Of a DNA stretch of 64,000 nucleotides, positions 11,303 through 59,298 are shown piece by piece. How positions within the stretch are numbered: the first letter of the stretch is position 1; the number at the start of each line of letters is the position of its first letter. Source of the stretch: Thermodesulfobacteriota bacterium. GTDB lineage: Bacteria > Desulfobacterota_D > UBA1144 > Nemesobacterales > CSP1-2. The position numbers and the translations under genes were made by a program. Location of the stretch: the NCBI GenBank assembly GCA_035559815.1, contig DATMAT010000029.1, forward strand, positions 2,485 through 66,484, written 5' to 3'. A model generated the notes under the pieces. That model was not told the DNA's origin. It ran no database searches and worked only from the letters and a program-made list of their open reading frames with translations.

Positions 11303-11959
11303 AAGCCCCTATCGAGTTGGCTAATCATTTTACCTAACCGATGTGTCGTGACGAGTCTTAAGATAACTAAGTAAGATATTAGAATGTCATTCGAGCTCCT
11401 AATCTGGGGATTTCTTCTGGTTTTTTTCCGCTGTTATTTCTAGGAATCCTTCTGTTTTTGATCGTCCCTAGCGTCGCTTAGAGTTTTGGCTTCGTCATTT
11501 CCCAGGAAGATAACCTGAAACATTGCAAGATTCCTCACATCCGTTCGGAATGACAAAAGCGGTTTTGCGGTATGGGAAACGCAATGAAGGTTCTGTCATT
11601 TCGACTGAAGGGAGAAATCTTAATGATGTAATAGTTCAAGATTCCTCATAAGCTCCTTCGCTGCCGCTCTGGACATGGTTCGGAATGATAACCAGGTTTT
11701 CTAACACCGCATGAAAATGTTTGGTGTGGGTTACAAAAGCCCCCACACCGTCCGAACCGGTGACAGTAAATTCCTTCACCCCTTCCAGCGGGGGAAGGTT
11801 AGGATGTGGGGGGTAAATGAATCTTTCTTCACACATCGTCTATCTTGAGTCAAATCGAAGGGCTCCTCGCAATTGACACAAGGAGCTTGCTGGTTTACTC
11901 ATCTGTCGTTTATGAAATTCGGTTAAAATTAAATAGGAATATCTGATTAGGAGGACGCA

Positions 11960-16057: not shown

Positions 16058-16226
16058 CGCCCCGATAGTATTATTTCTTGCCACGGGTTAACACTAGTAC
16101 ATTATCATTGCTAACGCGGTGAAGCAATCTCGTTTTTGGATTGCTTCGTCGCTATGCTCCTCGCAATGACAACTGAGACGGTATTATTGTAAGATTAAAG
16201 TTTATTAATAGTGGGAGTGACTTATC

Positions 16227-20584: not shown

Positions 20585-20765
20585 ATGTAATTACCTTCCG
20601 GTCATTGTGAGAGATACTTTGTTCACACTCAGCACGGGTCCCGTCTTGAAGCAATCTGACAGCAAGTGTCATTCCGAACGTACGTGAGGAATCTCAACGG
20701 ATTGCTTTGCTAATGCTGGCAATGACAACTTATTAATGCAATTAATATAATCGACATTCCTATCC

Positions 20766-24952: not shown

Positions 24953-25075
24953 TTCACCCTTCGACTGCGCTCAGGGTGAACGGTTTTTATTCCTTATTTC
25001 CAGCGGATGTAAATCCGCTCATGCTGAGTTTAGTCGAAGAATGAATTTAAAATGTAGGGAGTTCATCCTTCGTCA
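24953..25075. repeat. family A composite hairpin repeat
   Basis: cccttcgactgcgctcagggtgaacgg...cagcggatgtaaatccgctcatgctgag...gtcgaag. Confidence 0.7.
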
Positions 25076-25979: not shown

Positions 25980-26270
25980 CCATACTTCAACCCTTCGACT
26001 ACGCTGGACTACGGGATGAGAGGATTTGCATCCGCTGGAAATGAGAAAAAACTCCGTTCATACTGACCTTGTGAGTCTGTCGAACGATCGAAGAATGAAT
26101 ACCTCAAGAAATTCATACTTCGACCCTTCGACGATGCTCAGGACTTCAGTATGAGCGGATTTACATCCGCTAAAATAATTAATGATTAATAAAACCCGTT
26201 CGTCCTGAGCCGGGTCGAAGGATGAACACCTTACGTTTCAAATTCATCCTTCGATTGAAACGGATGAGTG
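25980..26270. repeat. cluster of family A repeats (several units, both orientations)
   Basis: multiple cccttcgac...gctcagg / gtcgaagg units with inner agcggat-N-atccgct hairpins. Confidence 0.7.
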
Positions 26271-28975: not shown

Positions 28976-29359
28976 GTCATATTCGTGAGCAAGAAAAAAT
29001 GAAAGAGGAGAGTTGGGATTCCTCGGGCGTTATTGCGAGGGAGAGAAACGACCGAAGCAATCCCTTGAAAAAAGAGATTGCTTCTATAAAGCCAATTATC
29101 CTCTTGCTCTACCATGGGAAGAGGGAGAATTGTCGAAAATCCGCTCGCCCCGAAAGGAATAAAATCATACAATCCCAAGGATTGACAAAATACGTCTGGA
29201 ATCAGTCAATTTGACAATTTTTGTCGTAAAAATGGGGTAATTTGCGCAAAATGCTACTTCTGGGAGGGTGGATAAAGGTCGGATTTGTTGCATTTTGGTT
29301 AAAGAATATCTTGGCTTTTCAATAGATTGTATTATCATTAAAGAGCGAAACGGCAAGGT

Positions 29360-31292: not shown

Positions 31293-32222
31293 ATGCTCAA
31301 AGTAGAAAATCTCGTAAAGGACTTCGCCACCGGATTTCTGAGAAAGAAGGTTCGGGTGCTCAAAGGTGTGTCTTTCTCAGTGAACAAGGGAGAGATATTC
31401 GGTTTTGTCGGGCCCAATGGTGCGGGGAAAACCACGACGTTTAAAGTGGTTCTGGGTTTTGTCCCCATTACAGATGGAAATGTTGAATTGATGGGGAAGC
31501 CACTCGGTGATGTGGATGTAAAAAAGCACATAGGCTACCTCCCGGAGAATCCATATTTCTATGATTACCTTACGGGCGAGGAGCTTCTTCGATATATGGG
31601 AGAGTTGCATGGGCTAAATGGAAAAGGTCTCTCCGCAAGAATCGATGAGCTTCTGGAGAAGGTAAAAATGTCTCATGCCCGAAAGGTGCAGTTGAGAAAA
31701 TATTCAAAAGGTATGCTTCAGAGGGTGGGTGTTGCTCAGGCCCTTATAAATGACCCTGATTTTCTTATCCTTGACGAGCCTATGACCGGGCTTGACCCTA
31801 TCGGACAAAGAGAAATAAAGGACCTGATTCTAGAGGAAAAAAAGAGGGGAAAAACCATACTTCTCAGTTCCCACATGCTCTCCGATGTCGAGGCTTTATG
31901 CGATAGGGTGGGGGTGGTTATGAACGGGAAAGTAGTCAAGATTGGCGAGCTGGGGAAGCTGTTTGAAGAGATTCATACGGATTATGAGATGCTTCTCAAG
32001 GGTGTTGATGAAAGGATTATGAACAGCCTTAGCGACCTTAAAGTTTCAGTCGAAAAAAGAGCAGGATTTACTGTTCTCAGGTTCGACGAAGATATTAAGA
32101 CCAGGGTATTCCAGGTCGTCTCTGATTCCGGTGCGGATATCGTCTCGCTTCATCCTTTAAGAAAATCTCTCGAAGGACTCTTCGTTGAGGAAGCGAAGAA
32201 GGATGTTCATCTTGAATCATGA
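31293..32222 (+). CDS. ABC transporter ATP-binding protein
   Basis: Walker A GPNGAGKTT, signature YSKGMLQRVGVAQAL, Walker B LILDEP. Confidence 0.85.
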   Translation: MLKVENLVKDFATGFLRKKVRVLKGVSFSVNKGEIFGFVGPNGAGKTTTFKVVLGFVPITDGNVELMGKPLGDVDVKKHIGYLPENPYFYDYLTGEELLRYMGELHGLNGKGLSARIDELLEKVKMSHARKVQLRKYSKGMLQRVGVAQALINDPDFLILDEPMTGLDPIGQREIKDLILEEKKRGKTILLSSHMLSDVEALCDRVGVVMNGKVVKIGELGKLFEEIHTDYEMLLKGVDERIMNSLSDLKVSVEKRAGFTVLRFDEDIKTRVFQVVSDSGADIVSLHPLRKSLEGLFVEEAKKDVHLES

Positions 32223-32632
32223 ACCGGTTTAGCCACGAATCTACACAGATGAACACGAATGAAAAAGATATTTTATATAAAGAGCTTTCTTATAAAATAA
32301 TTGGATTAGATATGGAAGTGCATAATAAACTGGGTTATGGATTCTTAGAAAAAGTCTATGAAAACGCTCTACTGATATTGTTACCGCGTAAAGATATCGA
32401 AGCAAAACAACAAGCACCGATAAAGGTATATTTCGAGGGGGAGGTTGTGGGAAATTACTTCGCTGATATTTTAGTTGAGGATAAAATTATATTGGAAATT
32501 AAAGCTTTAGACAAAATAATAGATGTCTACATTGCGCAGACGTTGAACTACTTAAAAGCAACTGGATTACAGTTAGCAATCATCTTAAATTTTGGTAAGA
32601 AGAGATTAGAGTACGAAAGAATCGTTAACTAG
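32219..32632 (+). CDS. GxxExxY-family protein (likely true start ATG 32249)
   Basis: LGYGFLEKVYENAL = G-x-x-E-x-x-Y signature; about 125 aa. Confidence 0.65.
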   Translation: MNRFSHESTQMNTNEKDILYKELSYKIIGLDMEVHNKLGYGFLEKVYENALLILLPRKDIEAKQQAPIKVYFEGEVVGNYFADILVEDKIILEIKALDKIIDVYIAQTLNYLKATGLQLAIILNFGKKRLEYERIVN

Positions 32633-32672
32633 ACAAATTTTTATTCGTGTAAATTCGTGTTTATTTGTGGCT
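32231..32672. mobile_element. TIR-bounded mini-cassette carrying the GxxExxY gene
   Basis: left agccacgaatctacacagatgaacacgaat vs reverse complement of right attcgtgtaaattcgtgtttatttgtggct (about 70% inverted identity); inserted in the spacer between ABC ATPase and permease. Confidence 0.45.
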
Positions 32673-32686
32673 AAGTAATTGGAATC

Positions 32687-33490
32687 ATGAGCAGAGTCTG
32701 GAGCGTTGCACATAATACATTCATAGAAGCGGTCAGAGACAGGGTTCTCTACAGCTTAATCCTGTTTGCATTTTTGATGATTCTGAGTTCTCTTATCCTA
32801 GCCAGTATATCCGGGGAGCAATATAACAAGATTGTTAAGGACCTCGGATTTACCGTTATTTCGCTCATCGGGGTCATGATTTCGGTATTTCTGGGCATGG
32901 GGCTTGTCTATAAGGAAATTGAGAAGAAAACCGTTTATAACATCTTTTCAAAACCGATACACCGGTATGAGTTTGTCTTCGGCAAATATCTGGGCCTTGC
33001 TTTTACCCTCCTAGTAAACACTGCGGCCATGGCTGTTATTCTTTTCCTGCTGGTGCTGTACACGGAGTTAAGGCATGGAGATTTTATAAAGTTTTACTAT
33101 GGCGGACCATATTACGCCGAGTTTTTCAAAGCAGTTTATTTTATTTACCTTGAGTTTCTTATAATCATCGGGGTTGCTTTGGTATTTTCGAGCTTTACAA
33201 CCCCGGTAATGACGGTGCTCTTTACGTTTCTGGTAATTGCAATCGGAAGGTTTTCGAGTGATGTGAAGCTTTTTGCCGAACAGGTCAAAAATCCTGTGAC
33301 TGGATTTTTCACCGAGGTCATTTATAGGGTTATGCCAAATTTGGAAAAGTTTGATGTAAGGCGCGAGGCCGTGTATGGAGGGAATGTAAGTTGGGAGCTT
33401 ATTCTTAATACCACTGCCTATGCCTTGCTTTACACCTTAGCGCTGCTGTTACTTTCTATAATAATATTCCAGAAGAGGGAATTTAAATAA
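32687..33490 (+). CDS. ABC-2 type transporter permease
   Basis: six TM helices, 267 aa, follows ATPase. Confidence 0.6.
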   Translation: MSRVWSVAHNTFIEAVRDRVLYSLILFAFLMILSSLILASISGEQYNKIVKDLGFTVISLIGVMISVFLGMGLVYKEIEKKTVYNIFSKPIHRYEFVFGKYLGLAFTLLVNTAAMAVILFLLVLYTELRHGDFIKFYYGGPYYAEFFKAVYFIYLEFLIIIGVALVFSSFTTPVMTVLFTFLVIAIGRFSSDVKLFAEQVKNPVTGFFTEVIYRVMPNLEKFDVRREAVYGGNVSWELILNTTAYALLYTLALLLLSIIIFQKREFK

Positions 33491-34873: not shown

Positions 34874-35028
34874 GATAATATCAAAAACCTTTTCTAATCA
34901 ACTTCAAGCCAAAACCTTCGATTAATAAAATATAGAAGTTTCCTTATTTAATGAACACCAGAGGGATGCCCTACGCATGAGTGTGTACCTAGGTCATTTG
35001 TGAAAGTAGTAATCCAATGTAGAGGCGC

Positions 35029-35056
35029 AAAATTTTGCGTCTCTACCCGTGGGTGC
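35029..35056. repeat. REP (GTAG-type palindrome)
   Basis: gtagaggcgcaaaattttgcgtctctac. Confidence 0.6.
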
Positions 35057-35296
35057 CTGGTTGCTTCTCCGATTAATCGGGTGAGTACACGGTTGTTATG
35101 CGAAAAGAGACAAATTGTTTCGGTATGGGCTATGTCATAGGTATTAAATTAACCAATTGTCTTAAGCCTTTTTTTCAGACTTAAATATAACTAAAGTCCA
35201 ATTGATGAACCCCGGAAAGGAGGGTTTTGTCTATTGGTCTCAGGCAGAACCGCAAGCACCCCATAAAAGTAATAAGCCCACCGTTAACAATGTGAG

Positions 35297-36019
35297 GTGA
35301 AATCAATGTTAAGAAAGATATATGATATTTTTATGTTCACTGCCTATGGCTTTCTCAAAACATCCTTATTTTTGTCTCTTTTTTGTCTTTCTATTTCTTT
35401 CTTCCTGAAATCCAAGAATATTTTTCATATAGAGGTAAAGAGTATAGAACCCTTGGGGGCGCTGGTGACCCCGACAGGTGGAACAAAACGGCTAGGTTCA
35501 ACAAATGCTGAAAGTATGGGCCTCAAAACGGATGAGGCCGATATTTTTAAATTTATTCTCAGGTTTTCCGACCGAATATCCACTGCAGATGCAAAAAAAC
35601 TGGCCAAACTTATTGACGAGGAATGCGAAATTTACGGTCTAGACCCATTTCTTATTCTGGCTATGATTTATGTCGAGAGTAAATTTGACCCGGTCGCAGT
35701 ATCAAATAAGGGAGCCATCGGTTTGATGCAGGTCATGCCTGTAACCGGTGAATTTATAGCCGGGAAATTGGGTATTCCTTTCAATGGAGATAAATCTCTT
35801 TTTGACCCGGTCGTCAACGTGAGGTTAGGCATATATTATTTTTCATCACTGATCAATCGCTTTGAGAGTATAGACCAGGCGCTTATTGCCTATAACGCCG
35901 GTCCAACCAGGTTCTTAAATACTGCAAGTTTGAGGAATGGAAAATCTACATACTTAACTAGAGTTTTACATTTTAGAAGTCTCCTGGAAGACGAAGGCAT
36001 AATAACCGAGGAGAGCTAG
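35297..36019 (+). CDS. lytic transglycosylase (SLT domain) protein
   Basis: IYVESKFDPVAVSNKGAIGLMQVMP...AYNAG; GTG start in track, ATG at 35306 with gaggtga RBS more likely. Confidence 0.7.
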   Translation: MKSMLRKIYDIFMFTAYGFLKTSLFLSLFCLSISFFLKSKNIFHIEVKSIEPLGALVTPTGGTKRLGSTNAESMGLKTDEADIFKFILRFSDRISTADAKKLAKLIDEECEIYGLDPFLILAMIYVESKFDPVAVSNKGAIGLMQVMPVTGEFIAGKLGIPFNGDKSLFDPVVNVRLGIYYFSSLINRFESIDQALIAYNAGPTRFLNTASLRNGKSTYLTRVLHFRSLLEDEGIITEES

Positions 36020-36072
36020 GGGCAACAAATGCTAAAGACTATGATAGTGCCTTCCTTCGTTCGTGATACCTC

Positions 36073-36411
36073 ATGTTCTGTCATTGCGAGGAGTTAAACG
36101 ACGAAGCAATCCCAGGCATTGCTATAATCGATCAACAATACTATGTATATATAATGACCAACAAAAACAATACTGTGCTCTACACGGGTGTTACAAACGA
36201 TTTAAAAAGAAGAGTTTATCAACATAGAGAAAAGTTAATAGATGGATTTACTAAAAGATATAATATCAATAAGTTGATATACTACGAGGTATTTGAGGAC
36301 ATACATAGTGCGATTTCAAGGGAAAAACAGATTAAGGCCGGTTCATGACAGAAAAAGATCGATCTCATTAATCGTATGAATAAAGGATGGAAAGACTTAT
36401 ACAGGGAATTA
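36073..36411 (+). pseudogene. GIY-YIG nuclease-family small protein with in-frame TGA at 36346-36348
   Basis: YYVYIMTNKNNTVLYTGVTNDLKRRVYQH...YYEVFEDIHSAISREKQIKAGS*QKKIDLINRMNKGWKDLYREL: the family's conserved tail continues in frame after the TGA; N-terminal 20 codons of the track ORF are repeat-encoded. Confidence 0.5.
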
Positions 36412-36483
36412 TGATGTTTTAAAGATAATAAACAGAAGCCAGAAGGTAATTTCAAGGGATTGCTTCACTACGTTCGCAATGAC
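36080..36483. mobile_element. mini-cassette: GIY-YIG gene flanked by inverted family B repeat units
   Basis: left gtcattgcgaggagttaaacgacgaagcaatccc (36080-36113), right gggattgcttcactacgttcgcaatgac (36456-36483) in opposite orientation. Confidence 0.4.
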
Positions 36484-36713
36484 AGAATTGGAAGATCTAT
36501 TGTTAGTGCCCTTCGGCAGGGTTTTAACAATAAGTCGGAGTGTTCGGAATACAATCTATGACCGAAGCAATCTACTTAGATTCCTCACGTTCTCCTTCGT
36601 CTTCGCTCAGGACTTGGTTCGGAATGACGACTTGTGTCAGATTGCCACGCTGCCAAAAGAAAGTGGCTTGCAATGACAGGTAGAATAGGTCATTCCAAGG
36701 ATGGTAAGCCGAG

Positions 36714-37616
36714 ATGAAATTCGGGGTGTCGCTGCCTAACTTCGGAAAGTATGCAGAGAGAGACTATATAATCGAGATTGCCAGAACAGCCGAGGACCTC
36801 GGCTTTGATTCACTCTGGGTTAGCGATCACATTATTATTCCTCATTCACATAAAGGTTTTGGTGAGGTATTTTATGAACCGCTTGTCACCTTAGCCTACA
36901 TAGCCTCCCATACAAACAAAATTCATCTGGGAACGAGCGTAATAATTCTTCCCTACAGGAATCCCATAGTGCTCGCAAAGACAATCTCAACCTTGGACGT
37001 GCTTTCTGGAGGAAGAGTAATATTTGGCATGGGTGCAGGATGGCTCAAGGAGGAATTTCTGGCTCTAGGTGCGTCTTATGAAGAAAGAGGTTCTATCACC
37101 GACGAGTGGATAGAAGTCTTAAAGCTACTCTGGACTGAGGAGAGGCCGGTTTTTAAAGGCCGGTATCACGAATTCTCGGATATTAGCTTTCTACCAAGAC
37201 CTATTCAAAAACCACATCCGCCAATATGGGTAGGTGGTAATAGCAGGAAAGCAGTCGAGCGGGCGGTTAGTTGCGGAGACGGTTGGCATCCTGTGGGTCT
37301 CATTCCGGAGGAGATAGCGGAGAAAGCCGACTATCTTGATGAAATGTTAGCCGCGAAAATGAAAAAAAGGTCCGAGTTTGTGATTTCCCTTAGGAAAAAC
37401 CTTCAAGTCTTCACCGGGAGGAAGCTCGATGTTGATGTTAAGGACGAAAGAGAAACACTCCGTGGCACCCGTGAGAAGATAATCAAGGGTTTAGAGCAAT
37501 ACGGGAGAGCGGGTGTATCGCACCTGGTTTTTCAGGTTTTGAGTGGGGATTTAAAAGGGATAGTGGAAACAATGAAAATTTTTTCAAAAGATATTGGTCC
37601 CGCGTTTAAACCCTAG
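36714..37616 (+). CDS. LLM-class flavin/F420-dependent oxidoreductase
   Basis: MKFGVSLPNFG...FDSLWVSDHI pattern. Confidence 0.7.
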   Translation: MKFGVSLPNFGKYAERDYIIEIARTAEDLGFDSLWVSDHIIIPHSHKGFGEVFYEPLVTLAYIASHTNKIHLGTSVIILPYRNPIVLAKTISTLDVLSGGRVIFGMGAGWLKEEFLALGASYEERGSITDEWIEVLKLLWTEERPVFKGRYHEFSDISFLPRPIQKPHPPIWVGGNSRKAVERAVSCGDGWHPVGLIPEEIAEKADYLDEMLAAKMKKRSEFVISLRKNLQVFTGRKLDVDVKDERETLRGTREKIIKGLEQYGRAGVSHLVFQVLSGDLKGIVETMKIFSKDIGPAFKP

Positions 37617-37729: not shown

Positions 37730-38025
37730 AATGAGTTCGCCCTTCGACTACTTCACCCTTCATCTTCGCTCAGTGTGAAGTAGTGTTAGAATGAGCTTTC
37801 CCTAGCTTCATGGTGAGGGCTTTGGCAAGCTCAGCATAAACTACGTCGAACCATGAGCCATTCGACTCGGCCCTTCTTCAAACGCAGGACAGGCTCAGGG
37901 CGAACGGAGTTTCATTTTATTAGTCATTTTAGCGGATAAGTATCCGCTCATGCTTGTCGAAGTATGATTTCTTGGGTGTTCATTCTTCCCCTGGTTAAAC
38001 CGAGGGACTTAGCTCAGAATGAACG
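37730..38025. repeat. family A repeat cluster
   Basis: gcccttcgactacttcaccc...gctcagtgtgaag...gtcgaaccatgag...gctcagggcgaacgg...agcggataagtatccgct. Confidence 0.7.
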
Positions 38026-51106: not shown

Positions 51107-51194
51107 TTATTCGCTTAGCCTATGGTAAGTTATCCAGCCTTAAAAAAGCTTGTCAAATGCATTCAGTATCAAACTTGTCCAAATAGTAGATTGC

Positions 51195-51310
51195 TTTGCA
51201 ATGACACCTTCTGTCTTGTCAATGCGAGAGACCCTTCGACGGAGTTTACACTGAGTTTATCGAATGTGCTCCGGGCAGGCCTTGCTTAAAACGTGTGAGT
51301 ATAAGGTTAA
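51195..51310. repeat. 115-bp repeat unit, near-identical copy at 57095-57215
   Basis: caatgacacc...cccttcgacggagtttacactgagtttatcgaatgtgctc(c/a)gggc(a/t)ggccttgcttaaaacgt. Confidence 0.75.
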
Positions 51311-51560
51311 GTGGGAATACACCGATCTGTCATTCCCGCGGAAGCGGGAATCCAATCTTTAATTATAGATTCCCGATTAAAAGATTTCGGGAATGACAAA
51401 GTGGATGGATCCCCGATTAATCCAGTCCCCAAATGTTTTTATTGGTGAACATTCGGGAATGACAACCAGGATGGATCTCTGATTCAGCTTGTCCCCGCGT
51501 ATGCGGAGAACAGGAATCCACCGATCTGTCATTCCCGCGGAAGCGGGAATCCAGTATTGT
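51310..51560. repeat. family C palindromic repeats (gtcattcccgcg-gaag-cgggaatcc), mixed orientation
   Basis: at least 4 units/half-units at irregular spacing. Confidence 0.7.
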
Positions 51561-56664: not shown

Positions 56665-57105
56665 TCAAATCAAATCTGACTTGAGGATTTCTTTTACCTT
56701 CTCCACAACGCCCCCTATTCTCACCGGCCTGGTGATAACGTGCTTGAACCCGGCCTTTTCAAGCCCTATGGCTTTCCTCTTGCCGCCAGCCGCTATTATT
56801 AAGATTGGAATCGATGAGGCGTGCTCAGAAAGAATCTTGATGTCCCGAGTTGGGTCATCTTGGGATTGATTGTCGTATATTATGATTGCCGGTATTATTC
56901 TCTTATCGGAAATCCAGTCGAGTCCTTCGTTCAATGTCTCAACGGCCAGGGTTCTGATCCCCTCCTCTAGAAGCTGGGCCCGGAGAAAAGCCCTTTCCCG
57001 CCAATCCTTCATTATCAATATCGCCGCACGTGTTTTCATGAGGAAACTATGACAATTATACTTCTTCCAACTGATCCAAAATAGGAGATTCCTTCGCAAT
57101 GACAC
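56665..57105 (-). CDS. stand-alone receiver-domain-like protein
   Basis: about 120-aa alpha/beta pattern resembling CheY-like REC; weak. Confidence 0.35.
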   Translation of the reverse strand: MSLRRNLLFWISWKKYNCHSFLMKTRAAILIMKDWRERAFLRAQLLEEGIRTLAVETLNEGLDWISDKRIIPAIIIYDNQSQDDPTRDIKILSEHASSIPILIIAAGGKRKAIGLEKAGFKHVITRPVRIGGVVEKVKEILKSDLI

Positions 57106-57215
57106 CTTGGGTCTTGTTATTGCGAAGAGCCATTCGGCCCTTCGACGGAGTTTACACTGAGTTTATCGAATGTGCTCAGGGCTGGCCTTGCTTAAAACGT
57201 TTGAGTATAAGTGAG
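57095..57215. repeat. second copy of the 115-bp unit
   Basis: see 51195-51310. Confidence 0.75.
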
Positions 57216-57222
57216 AATCCAC

Positions 57223-57530
57223 CAATCTGTCATTCCCGCGCAACTTGTCCTCGACCATGATCGGGGAGCGGGAATCCGTCCACCTGTCATTCCCACGCAA
57301 GTGGGAATCCATTGTTTAATTATGGATCCCCGATTAATCTTGTCCCCGCATGTGTCTGGCGGGGAACATTCGGGGATGACAACCAGGGGGATCCCCCGGT
57401 TAAAACGGGGGACGGGGATGACATGCGGAGAGGAACCTCGCTTGATCTCTCGGTTTAACCGGGGTACAGGCATGACCGGAAGACTACTGTCATTCCCGTG
57501 GAAGCGGGAATCCAGTTTTTCAAAAAATGG
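57223..57530. repeat. family C palindromic repeats with nested insertion
   Basis: gtcattcccgcg[caacttgtcctcgaccatgatcgggga]gcgggaatcc etc. Confidence 0.7.
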
Positions 57531-57629
57531 ATCCCCGATTCGATAAAATTCAGTGTGTACTCCATCGTAGGGATAAACTACGACGAAGTAGAACATGAGT
57601 AATCTTTTGACGAGTTCGCCCTTCCCCCG

Positions 57630-57900
57630 GTTAAACCAGGGGACCTGGCTCAGGACGAACGGGCTTTTATTTCATAAAGCCTTTACAGCGGATATACATC
57701 TGCTCATTCCTTCATTGCACTCACCCTTCGTCTCCGCTCAGGGTGAAGTGGTATTAGAATGAGCTTGCCCTTCCTTCATGGTGAGCGGAGTCGAACCATG
57801 AGCCTTTCGCCTCCGCTCAAAGCCTGTCCTGAACCTGCTGAGGGCATAAACTCCGTCGAACCATGGGCCCATCGGTAAACTCTGAGCCTGTCGAAGGATG
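57630..57900. repeat. family A-type repeat cluster
   Basis: cacccttcgtctccgctcagggtgaag...gagtcgaaccatgag... Confidence 0.7.
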
Positions 57901-59165: not shown

Positions 59166-59298
59166 CGTTTTTTCAATGGATTGCTTCGTCGCTTTGCTCC
59201 TCGCAATGACACCCAGGAAATGGCGACTCTTCTCTCTGACTCCACGCGAAGCAATCTTTTAATTTCGGACAAGGTTGACCGCTACAAATGATGGCTTA

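Follow-up and report, generated by a model that had tools for sequence, protein, structure and literature searches.

A putatively pseudogenised ssnA homologue between inverted hairpin repeats in a Thermodesulfobacteriota genome

The SsnA family and the window locus

The closest described counterpart of the locus considered here is SsnA of Neisseria meningitidis, a 94-aa single-domain GIY-YIG protein assigned to cd10448 (GIY-YIG_unchar_3) in CDD (Chenal et al., Nat Commun 2025, PMC11893778). Our locus lies in a 64,000-nt stretch of DNA, hereafter the window, from a Thermodesulfobacteriota metagenome-assembled genome (MAG; GenBank assembly GCA_035559815.1, contig DATMAT010000029.1), and consists of a small GIY-YIG reading frame set between two short repeat units in opposite orientation. 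Binding of SsnA to the hairpin repeat NTS (CGTCATTCCCGCGMAVGCGGGAATCYRG) takes place only when the repeat is single-stranded, the cut falling a few nucleotides upstream, and the enzyme has no activity on duplex DNA, RNA or the reverse strand (PMC11893778). Recognition requires the hairpin foot and the C just 3' of it; this C is critical for binding, cutting depends critically on the three nucleotides 5' of the palindrome, and the substitutions Y6A, Y17A and E64A abolish cleavage (PMC11893778). An Ssn-related motif (SRM) was reported near 71% of the homologues and on both sides of 42%, four Ssn homologues were found to cut their own repeats, and in Neisseria SsnA limits transformation by NTS-containing DNA (PMC11893778). 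The same authors liken the NTS-ssnA-NTS arrangement to an insertion sequence and draw an analogy with repetitive extragenic palindromic (REP) elements and their REP-associated tyrosine transposases (RAYTs) (PMC11893778). A literature search by repeat sequence, by family names and accessions and by links to REP elements or MITEs (miniature inverted-repeat transposable elements) returned nothing relevant.

The 91-aa open reading frame (ORF) annotated at the window locus matches the Pfam GIY-YIG domain PF01541 (E=9.4e-18), and a database search returned a Thermodesulfobacteriota MAG entry for the identical 91-aa protein, under the name 'GIY-YIG nuclease family protein'. Reading through the internal TGA brings the match to E=2e-18, with PF01541 as the sole Pfam domain of the frame, while NCBIfam offers no specific model for the protein and only sub-threshold matches. 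There are thousands of database relatives, of which the best are mostly 95 aa long and 75–82% identical, and a tblastn search of the window with the family consensus aligns residues 1–95 at 86% identity. A 94-aa protein of N. gonorrhoeae aligns without gaps at 49% identity over 89 aa (E=2e-33). Its gene is surrounded by canonical NTS repeats, and from its length, repeats and genus it is probably the orthologue of NMV_0044 (SsnA). Moreover, Tyr8, Tyr19 and Glu66 of the window frame align with the catalytic Tyr6, Tyr17 and Glu64 of SsnA (N. meningitidis numbering). An AlphaFold2 (AF2) model of the protein forms one compact alpha/beta domain with a predicted local distance difference test score of 77.8, and its best fold match is 1ZG2, followed by Slx1 and the UvrC N-terminal domain. 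Judged by these comparisons, the locus appears to hold an ssnA homologue that has become a pseudogene and is flanked by SRM-type repeats. Very probably, it is a recently inactivated copy that has kept its place between two inverted hairpin repeats of the kind recognised by the family. A first-pass annotation of the stretch had proposed a GIY-YIG gene between inverted repeat units; the Pfam match and the two mapped units bear this out, and the arrangement proves to be a rule across the family (see below). The coordinates of the locus and of other repeat-bearing features of the window are collected in Table 1.

Table 1. Features of the putative ssnA-family locus and of related repeat elements (window coordinates).
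Feature	Position	Strand	Remarks
Annotated ORF	36073-36348	+	91 aa; P0001 in the public record; upstream ATG start, premature TGA end
Putative ssnA-homologous frame	36127-36414	+	95 codons plus terminal TGA at 36412-36414; single-domain GIY-YIG
Predicted catalytic codons	Tyr8 36148-36150; Tyr19 36181-36183; Glu66 36322-36324	+	by alignment to SsnA
Premature in-frame TGA	36346-36348	+	replaces a near-invariant Arg
Stranded 21-codon tail	36349-36411	+	QKKIDLINRMNKGWKDLYREL; conserved family C-terminus
Family start-codon position	36124-36129	+	ATA ATC in the window, ATG ATG in L083
Left repeat unit, SRM-type	36078-36113; core 36080-36111	+	CTGTCATTGCGAGGAGTTAAACGACGAAGCAATCCC; core GTCATTGCGAGGAGTTAAACGACGAAGCAATC
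Right repeat unit, inverted	36456-36487; core 36458-36483	-	minus strand GTCATTGCGAACGTAGTGAAGCAATC
Adjoining unit cluster	36560-36696	.	several partial or full units
3' half-unit in cluster	36563-36572	+	
ATTCC/GGAAT-foot unit in cluster	36579-36628	-	
Unit in cluster	36640-36677	-	
Unit head in cluster	36689-36696	+	
Further intergenic SRM-type clusters	11530-11650; 16100-16170; 20600-20726; 29017-29085; 51190-51535; 57087-57496; 59179-59256		ATTGC and ATTCC feet; orientation often alternating
GxxExxY ORF	32219-32632		own 37-nt inverted repeats 32229-32265 / 32638-32674

Decay of the reading frame

In an alignment of the window frame with 23 homologues, the premature TGA falls within ...REKQIKAGS-R-QKKIDLIN.., in a near-invariant Arg column; of the homologous loci, 62 of the 63 with a parsable motif have Arg there. 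The nearest relative, L083 (loci are numbered L001 onward), has CGA at this codon, as do the relatives L082–L090 and L097. The stranded tail behind the stop keeps K, L, N, W, D and L where these residues are invariant in the 24-sequence alignment, which agrees with the first-pass view that the frame past the TGA encodes the conserved tail of the family. That annotation had also suggested aligning the product to full-length small GIY-YIG proteins; the homologues, mostly 95 aa long, do extend past the window TGA. An altered genetic code or a selenocysteine at 36346 is excluded, as TGA terminates 18 of the 51 long ORFs of the window and the aligned residue is Arg.

The amino-terminal end carries a second lesion. 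Homologues begin M-(D/N/S)-(K/Q)-Q-Y-Y, and the closest relatives (L082–L090, 80% amino acid identity) have ATG ATG GAT CAG CAA at the family start, where the window reads ATA ATC GAT CAA CAA (36124-36138); the canonical start of the window copy has thus been lost. The only in-frame ATG past this position, at 36154, would yield a product that drops the first beta-strand and its catalytic Tyr. The first-pass placement of the true start near 36130-36154 is accordingly not sustained, since the family start aligns further upstream. The first 18 codons of the annotated ORF (FCHCEELNDEAIP...) instead translate the left repeat, and this 18-codon extension offsets the 22-codon loss at the C-terminus, so that the ORF appears full-length; automatic annotation can in this way conceal decay. 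Many other family members in the databases carry an N-terminal extension of this sort, likewise encoded by repeat sequence (CHCEExSDEAI). Most of the extended homologues retain an internal ATG or GTG start, and for this reason the extensions look like ORF-calling artefacts. A promoter and terminator scan found nothing upstream of either candidate start.

The window and L083 genes differ with a ratio of nonsynonymous to synonymous substitution rates (dN/dS) of 0.09 at a synonymous divergence (dS) of 1.09, and the ratio for the stranded tail is 0.13. Such low values imply purifying selection over almost all of the divergence and hence a recent decay; the gene was under strong purifying selection until recently. 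Together, the Arg column, the CGA of the nearest relative, the loss of both canonical ATG codons and the dN/dS uphold the earlier proposal that a CGA-to-TGA nonsense mutation made this copy a pseudogene. Decay of this kind is found elsewhere in the family. Among the 80 best genomic homologues, seven (L002, L018, L020, L063, L064, L072 and L080) carry single nonsense or frameshift lesions, all at different codons and in frames that are otherwise well conserved, which indicates that random decay is common in the family and that the stop does not mark a conserved site of recoding.

The contig belongs to a MAG, a kind of assembly in which strains can be mixed and single bases miscalled in the consensus, and the lesions might be errors of sequencing or assembly in a gene that is really intact. 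We regard this as very improbable: it would require three errors, one for each substitution, the neighbouring genes are intact, and a second assembler yields the same sequence. Over 3276 nt, TGA and other lesions included, there is no difference between the window and the Logan assembly of run SRR7882662; the T at 36346, for which a check of read support had been suggested, is present in this second assembly of the same reads.

A less remote, still unlikely alternative is that the gene is alive, either as a functional 91-aa enzyme started at 36073 or by read-through of the TGA to the full length. Several observations speak in this direction and against inactivation. The upstream ATG could still yield a 91-aa product with all three catalytic residues, the tail behind the stop is intact, NCBI annotates the ORF as an intact protein, and several database homologues have repeat-encoded N-terminal extensions. 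A TGA followed by C is a leaky stop context, and some residual activity of the window gene by this route may persist. The Logan assembly, moreover, was built from the same reads as the contig. Against a living gene, the lost Arg and the K, L, N, W, D and L that follow it are invariant or nearly so across phyla, the Arg being kept even in the distant 1ZG2, and the homologues' extensions mostly contain an internal start as described above. Further, there is no Shine-Dalgarno or promoter-like site ahead of 36073, and the lesions at unrelated codons in other members of the family point to random decay. We consequently favour inactivation, and the truncated product is probably inactive.

Repeat units and their association with the gene

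In the left unit two feet, the 5-nt ATTGC and then GCAAT, enclose a variable centre, with GTC ahead of them and C behind. The two units share exact inverted arms (36076-36089/36474-36487 and 36103-36113/36456-36466), and a 30-nt pattern derived from the left unit, with five free central positions, has three matches in the window as against none in 100 shuffles. DNA similarity to the L083 and L082 cassettes begins with CTGTCATTGC... at the left unit and ends with ...GCAATGACA at the right one, the homology of the L083 cassette stopping at ...CGCAATGACA; the limits set by this homology, 36078-36485 or about 408 bp, put the edges of the cassette precisely at the outer ends of the two units. In most homologous loci, the GAGGAG..GACGAAGCAATC subtype of the left unit is found 5–30 nt upstream of the start codon. 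GTCATT[GC]C heads are in excess throughout the window (21 versus about 4 expected in shuffles) and lie in intergenic clusters; in the doublet at 16113-16170 the units are separated by an 8–9 nt spacer, and the unit at 51329-51352 (GTCATTCCCGCGGAAGCGGGAATC) is nearly a canonical Neisseria NTS. A separate observation is that the exact 26-mer GTCATTGCGAACGTAGTGAAGCAATC of the right unit also stands beside ssnA homologues in the cyanobacterium Kamptonema (L006) and in a Fodinibius (L067); its presence in three hosts may reflect transfer or constraint.

A scan of 35000-37500 against Rfam at E<=1 came back empty; the units accordingly belong to no described RNA family. Since the window units are not significantly stable by energy, the claim that they form hairpins rests on covariation. 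The unit centre varies in length and sequence while its pairing is kept, with a mean closing stem of 2.1 bp against 0.35 bp in shuffles. Compensatory changes in the central stem include GC, AT and CG at paired positions, and G.A or A.G mismatches become Watson-Crick pairs in some copies. There is likewise a sister repeat class with the compensatory foot ATTCC/GGAAT, and a long-centred member of the repeat family folds at z=-4.1.

To examine the association across the family, we scanned one genome per species, which gave more than 569 relatives, and kept the best 80 loci (L001-L080), from more than 15 phyla. A unit in plus orientation ends within 60 nt upstream of the gene in 39 of these 80 loci, and a unit in minus orientation starts within 60 nt downstream in 31. 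The background density more than 1 kb away is about 0.07 units per kb per strand, and the repeats are thus enriched beside the gene about 100-fold, with an orientation bias; plus upstream with minus downstream is the commonest arrangement (28/80). Independently of the search pattern, GTC precedes 310 of 331 ATTGCGAG cores (94%) and C follows 303 of 336 GAAGCAAT cores (90%), and these conserved flank positions match the nucleotides that are experimentally critical for SsnA (PMC11893778). Close unit pairs are inverted far more often than direct (99 vs 21), and neighbours mostly alternate.

These data also bear on the possibility, which we consider decidedly slight, that the nuclease gene is a mere passenger, beside generic REP- or MITE-like repeats that another enzyme mobilises in trans and that accumulate in the same intergenic regions as the gene. 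Such a view could draw on the clustering of units in alternating orientation, in the manner of bacterial interspersed mosaic elements (BIMEs), also far from any ssnA; on the variable flank architecture, L095 and L096 having the gene between two units in direct orientation; and on the invasion of one and the same slot (see below) by a four-helix-bundle cassette without any recognisable nuclease gene. It is opposed by the strength and orientation bias of the enrichment right beside the gene and by the identity of the conserved GTC and C with the mapped recognition determinants of SsnA. In addition, the published biochemistry found SsnA to bind and cleave the repeat directly and specifically, and of the genomes that hold over 200 repeats, 81% have a gene for a homologue (PMC11893778).

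The assignment of the units to the SRM type and of the enzyme to these units has its own difficulties. The published search string for the SRM, HGTCWYN(0-2)YYVSBRHN(0-5)WNVSBRGN(0-2)RNCYNB, has no match among the 333 ATTGC-type units of the 80 loci. Its one match in the window, at 2900-2929, lies outside all identified units, while the same script finds nine matches around the Neisseria gene. The window's short units are also weak hairpins by nearest-neighbour energy (z of -0.1 to -0.5), no better than shuffles, and the pairing of this protein subfamily with the ATTGC repeat class is one of association only. The mismatch to the string lies at its YY positions, where ATTGC has TG, and the units otherwise share the architecture of GTC, foot, centre, foot and C; by this likeness they appear to be a variant repeat class. 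GTC-ATTGC...GCAAT-C looks like an undescribed or under-detected specificity class, seemingly dominant in the subfamily closest to the window gene. As the string misses this class, the published association figures of 71% and 42% may be underestimates. The class, found beside homologues in more than 15 phyla, is also a candidate for a new Ssn/repeat specificity pair for use in single-stranded-DNA tools.

Cassette turnover and comparison with known systems

In the closest relatives an intact ssnA cassette sits at another site, between the genes for an ABC ATPase and an ABC-2 permease. The same operon is present in the window at 31293-33490 (genes 31293-32222 and 32687-33490), with the corresponding slot at 32219-32674. 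Scanning metagenomes with the permease as the query yielded 47 loci. In all basal lineages the slot is empty (0–80 nt), and derived lineages have it filled in various ways: an ssnA cassette occupies it in L083-90, L095-97 and L100; a GxxExxY/PDDEXK_3 cassette in the window, L091, L098 and L131; a four-helix-bundle/23S_rRNA_IVP cassette with its own repeats in L094 and L132, with a gene-less remnant in L109; and gene-less SRM doublets in L092 and L101/102. On the permease-gene tree, sister taxa differ in slot state, and three unrelated small-gene cassettes seem to compete for the same slot. It had been suggested from the window alone that two small nuclease-like genes each ride on a miniature element of their own. 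The inverted repeats of the GxxExxY ORF agree with this, and the comparison carries the idea further, in that GxxExxY lies in just the slot where relatives have the GIY-YIG cassette. The gene-less doublets of L092 and L101 are related to the cassettes, but we rejected them as simple excision products.

At the site of the window gene itself, the sister contig L091 (96% nucleotide identity in the upstream SLT gene) lacks the ssnA cassette, and its similarity to the window resumes at 36476. In place of the cassette, L091 has a different dispersed repeat of about 110 nt (L091:9349-9610, ...cattccttcattgcattcaggacaggctctgagcccgtcgaagg...), copies of which are also present in the window at 57614-57723, 24969-25022, 26151-26250 and 37975-38025. 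The divergence of ssnA is decoupled from that of host genes. In L095 (1500-1787) and L096 (5438-5725), two very close genomes with ssnA in the same slot, the ssnA genes differ at dS 0.32 and the host permease genes at dS 0.075, a four-fold contrast that suggests replacement of the ssnA allele by gene conversion or transfer; L096 carries an extra repeat doublet. For the window and L083, the proportion of synonymous differences (pS) is 0.58 in ssnA and 0.71 in the host gene, a weak contrast based on few synonymous sites.

The following scheme would accommodate these patterns. An active enzyme would be expected to nick just left of 36080 on the top strand and just right of 36483 on the bottom one, i.e., at the outer edges of the cassette, and would cut likewise at about 20 other units of the window. 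Once Ssn had cut single-stranded DNA in this manner, copying, or recombination from one unit to another, could spread units, gene-less doublets and cassettes, and the cassette would be capable of moving itself. We put forward only tentatively, as a possibility that falls short of being probable, that SRM-ssnA-SRM cassettes are active self-propagating micro-elements rather than host-domesticated nucleases. They would form a guild with the GxxExxY PD-(D/E)xK and the 23S-rRNA-IVS four-helix-bundle cassettes, each with its own terminal inverted repeats, and would time and again enter the same intergenic slots and displace one another there. This proposal has to contend with the fact that neither a target-site duplication nor a clean empty site or excision product was found in the compared loci. 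If the proposal is right, presence/absence and slot sharing would be the first comparative support for the insertion-sequence idea, of which Chenal et al. raise only the resemblance. The natural role of Ssn outside Neisseria was left open by that study (PMC11893778), and the gain and loss of cassettes in close relatives, the decoupled divergence of ssnA and the slot shared with two other cassettes all bear on it.

Presence/absence polymorphism and frequent decay are likewise reminiscent of the homing cycle, and over the region of the GIY-YIG motif there is weak NCBIfam similarity to group I intron endonucleases. That the gene encodes a free-standing homing endonuclease of the T4 Seg or I-TevI type, cutting double-stranded DNA at a cognate site, is nonetheless scarcely credible. 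The TIGR01453 scores of 17.8–19.5 bits are far below the cut-off of 56 bits, the 95-aa protein ends after the catalytic domain with no DNA-binding domain, and the characterised relative SsnA is inactive on double-stranded DNA (PMC11893778). The family is also nearly absent from viral contigs, with only two weak relatives among 2.9 million, and matches in plasmid or chromid records number only 32, mostly at less than 60% identity; phages and plasmids are thus not obvious vectors. No meaningful match was obtained with the PADLOC defence models.

With REP/RAYT systems (REPtrons), BIMEs and IS200/IS605 elements, the locus shares a small gene between inverted short hairpin repeats and intergenic clusters of alternating units. 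It further shares with REP/RAYT and with the Y1 enzymes of IS200/IS605 a conserved short tag beside the hairpin foot and, by analogy, a substrate that would be read as single-stranded DNA. It differs from REP/RAYT in that the window enzyme has a GIY-YIG rather than an HUH/Y1 fold, and in that the tag is GTC...C, not GTAG/CGTC. Membership in the REPtrons was rejected: in place of a Y1 HUH transposase, there is only a GIY-YIG domain with GIY-YIG fold neighbours. A classical insertion sequence or MITE was likewise rejected; the inverted units are present, but no transposase is encoded, and neither the window cassette nor that of L083 lies between direct duplications.

Among solved structures, only that of the UPF0213 protein BH0048 (PDB 1ZG2) has detectable sequence similarity to the window protein (E=8.6e-5). 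This protein and the small GIY-YIG proteins of the E. coli YhbQ type resemble it in size and in having a single domain, and 1ZG2 also has the S-R-x-K-K segment that holds the Arg mutated in the window; the identity is only about 29%, however, and 1ZG2 is an uncharacterised protein. The next-best structural neighbours, with template modelling (TM) scores of about 0.5–0.6, are Slx1 and the N-terminal GIY-YIG domain of UvrC, nucleases whose targets are DNA structures or strands left unpaired. They differ from the window protein in being multi-domain or multi-subunit repair enzymes without associated repeats, and their E-values of 0.16–0.3 are not significant.

The gene-plus-repeat system to which the window locus is best compared is the already known one of SsnA and the NTS/SRM repeats, characterised in 2025 (PMC11893778). 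Common to both are a single-domain GIY-YIG protein of about 94–95 aa, with the catalytic Tyr, Tyr and Glu present in the window frame, and the placement of the gene between inverted GTC-palindrome-C hairpin repeats that are abundant and intergenic elsewhere in the genome. The window locus departs from the described system in the foot of its repeats, ATTGC/GCAAT with a GAG...CGAA internal loop as against ATTCCC/GGGAAT; in its host, a Thermodesulfobacteriota MAG that is not known to be linked to natural transformation; and in being a broken copy, in which the loss of the start and the nonsense codon leave no intact ORF. Taken by itself, the locus would be a routine pseudogene of a biochemically characterised family, whereas the findings that emerge beside it from the comparison of relatives exceed the published description.

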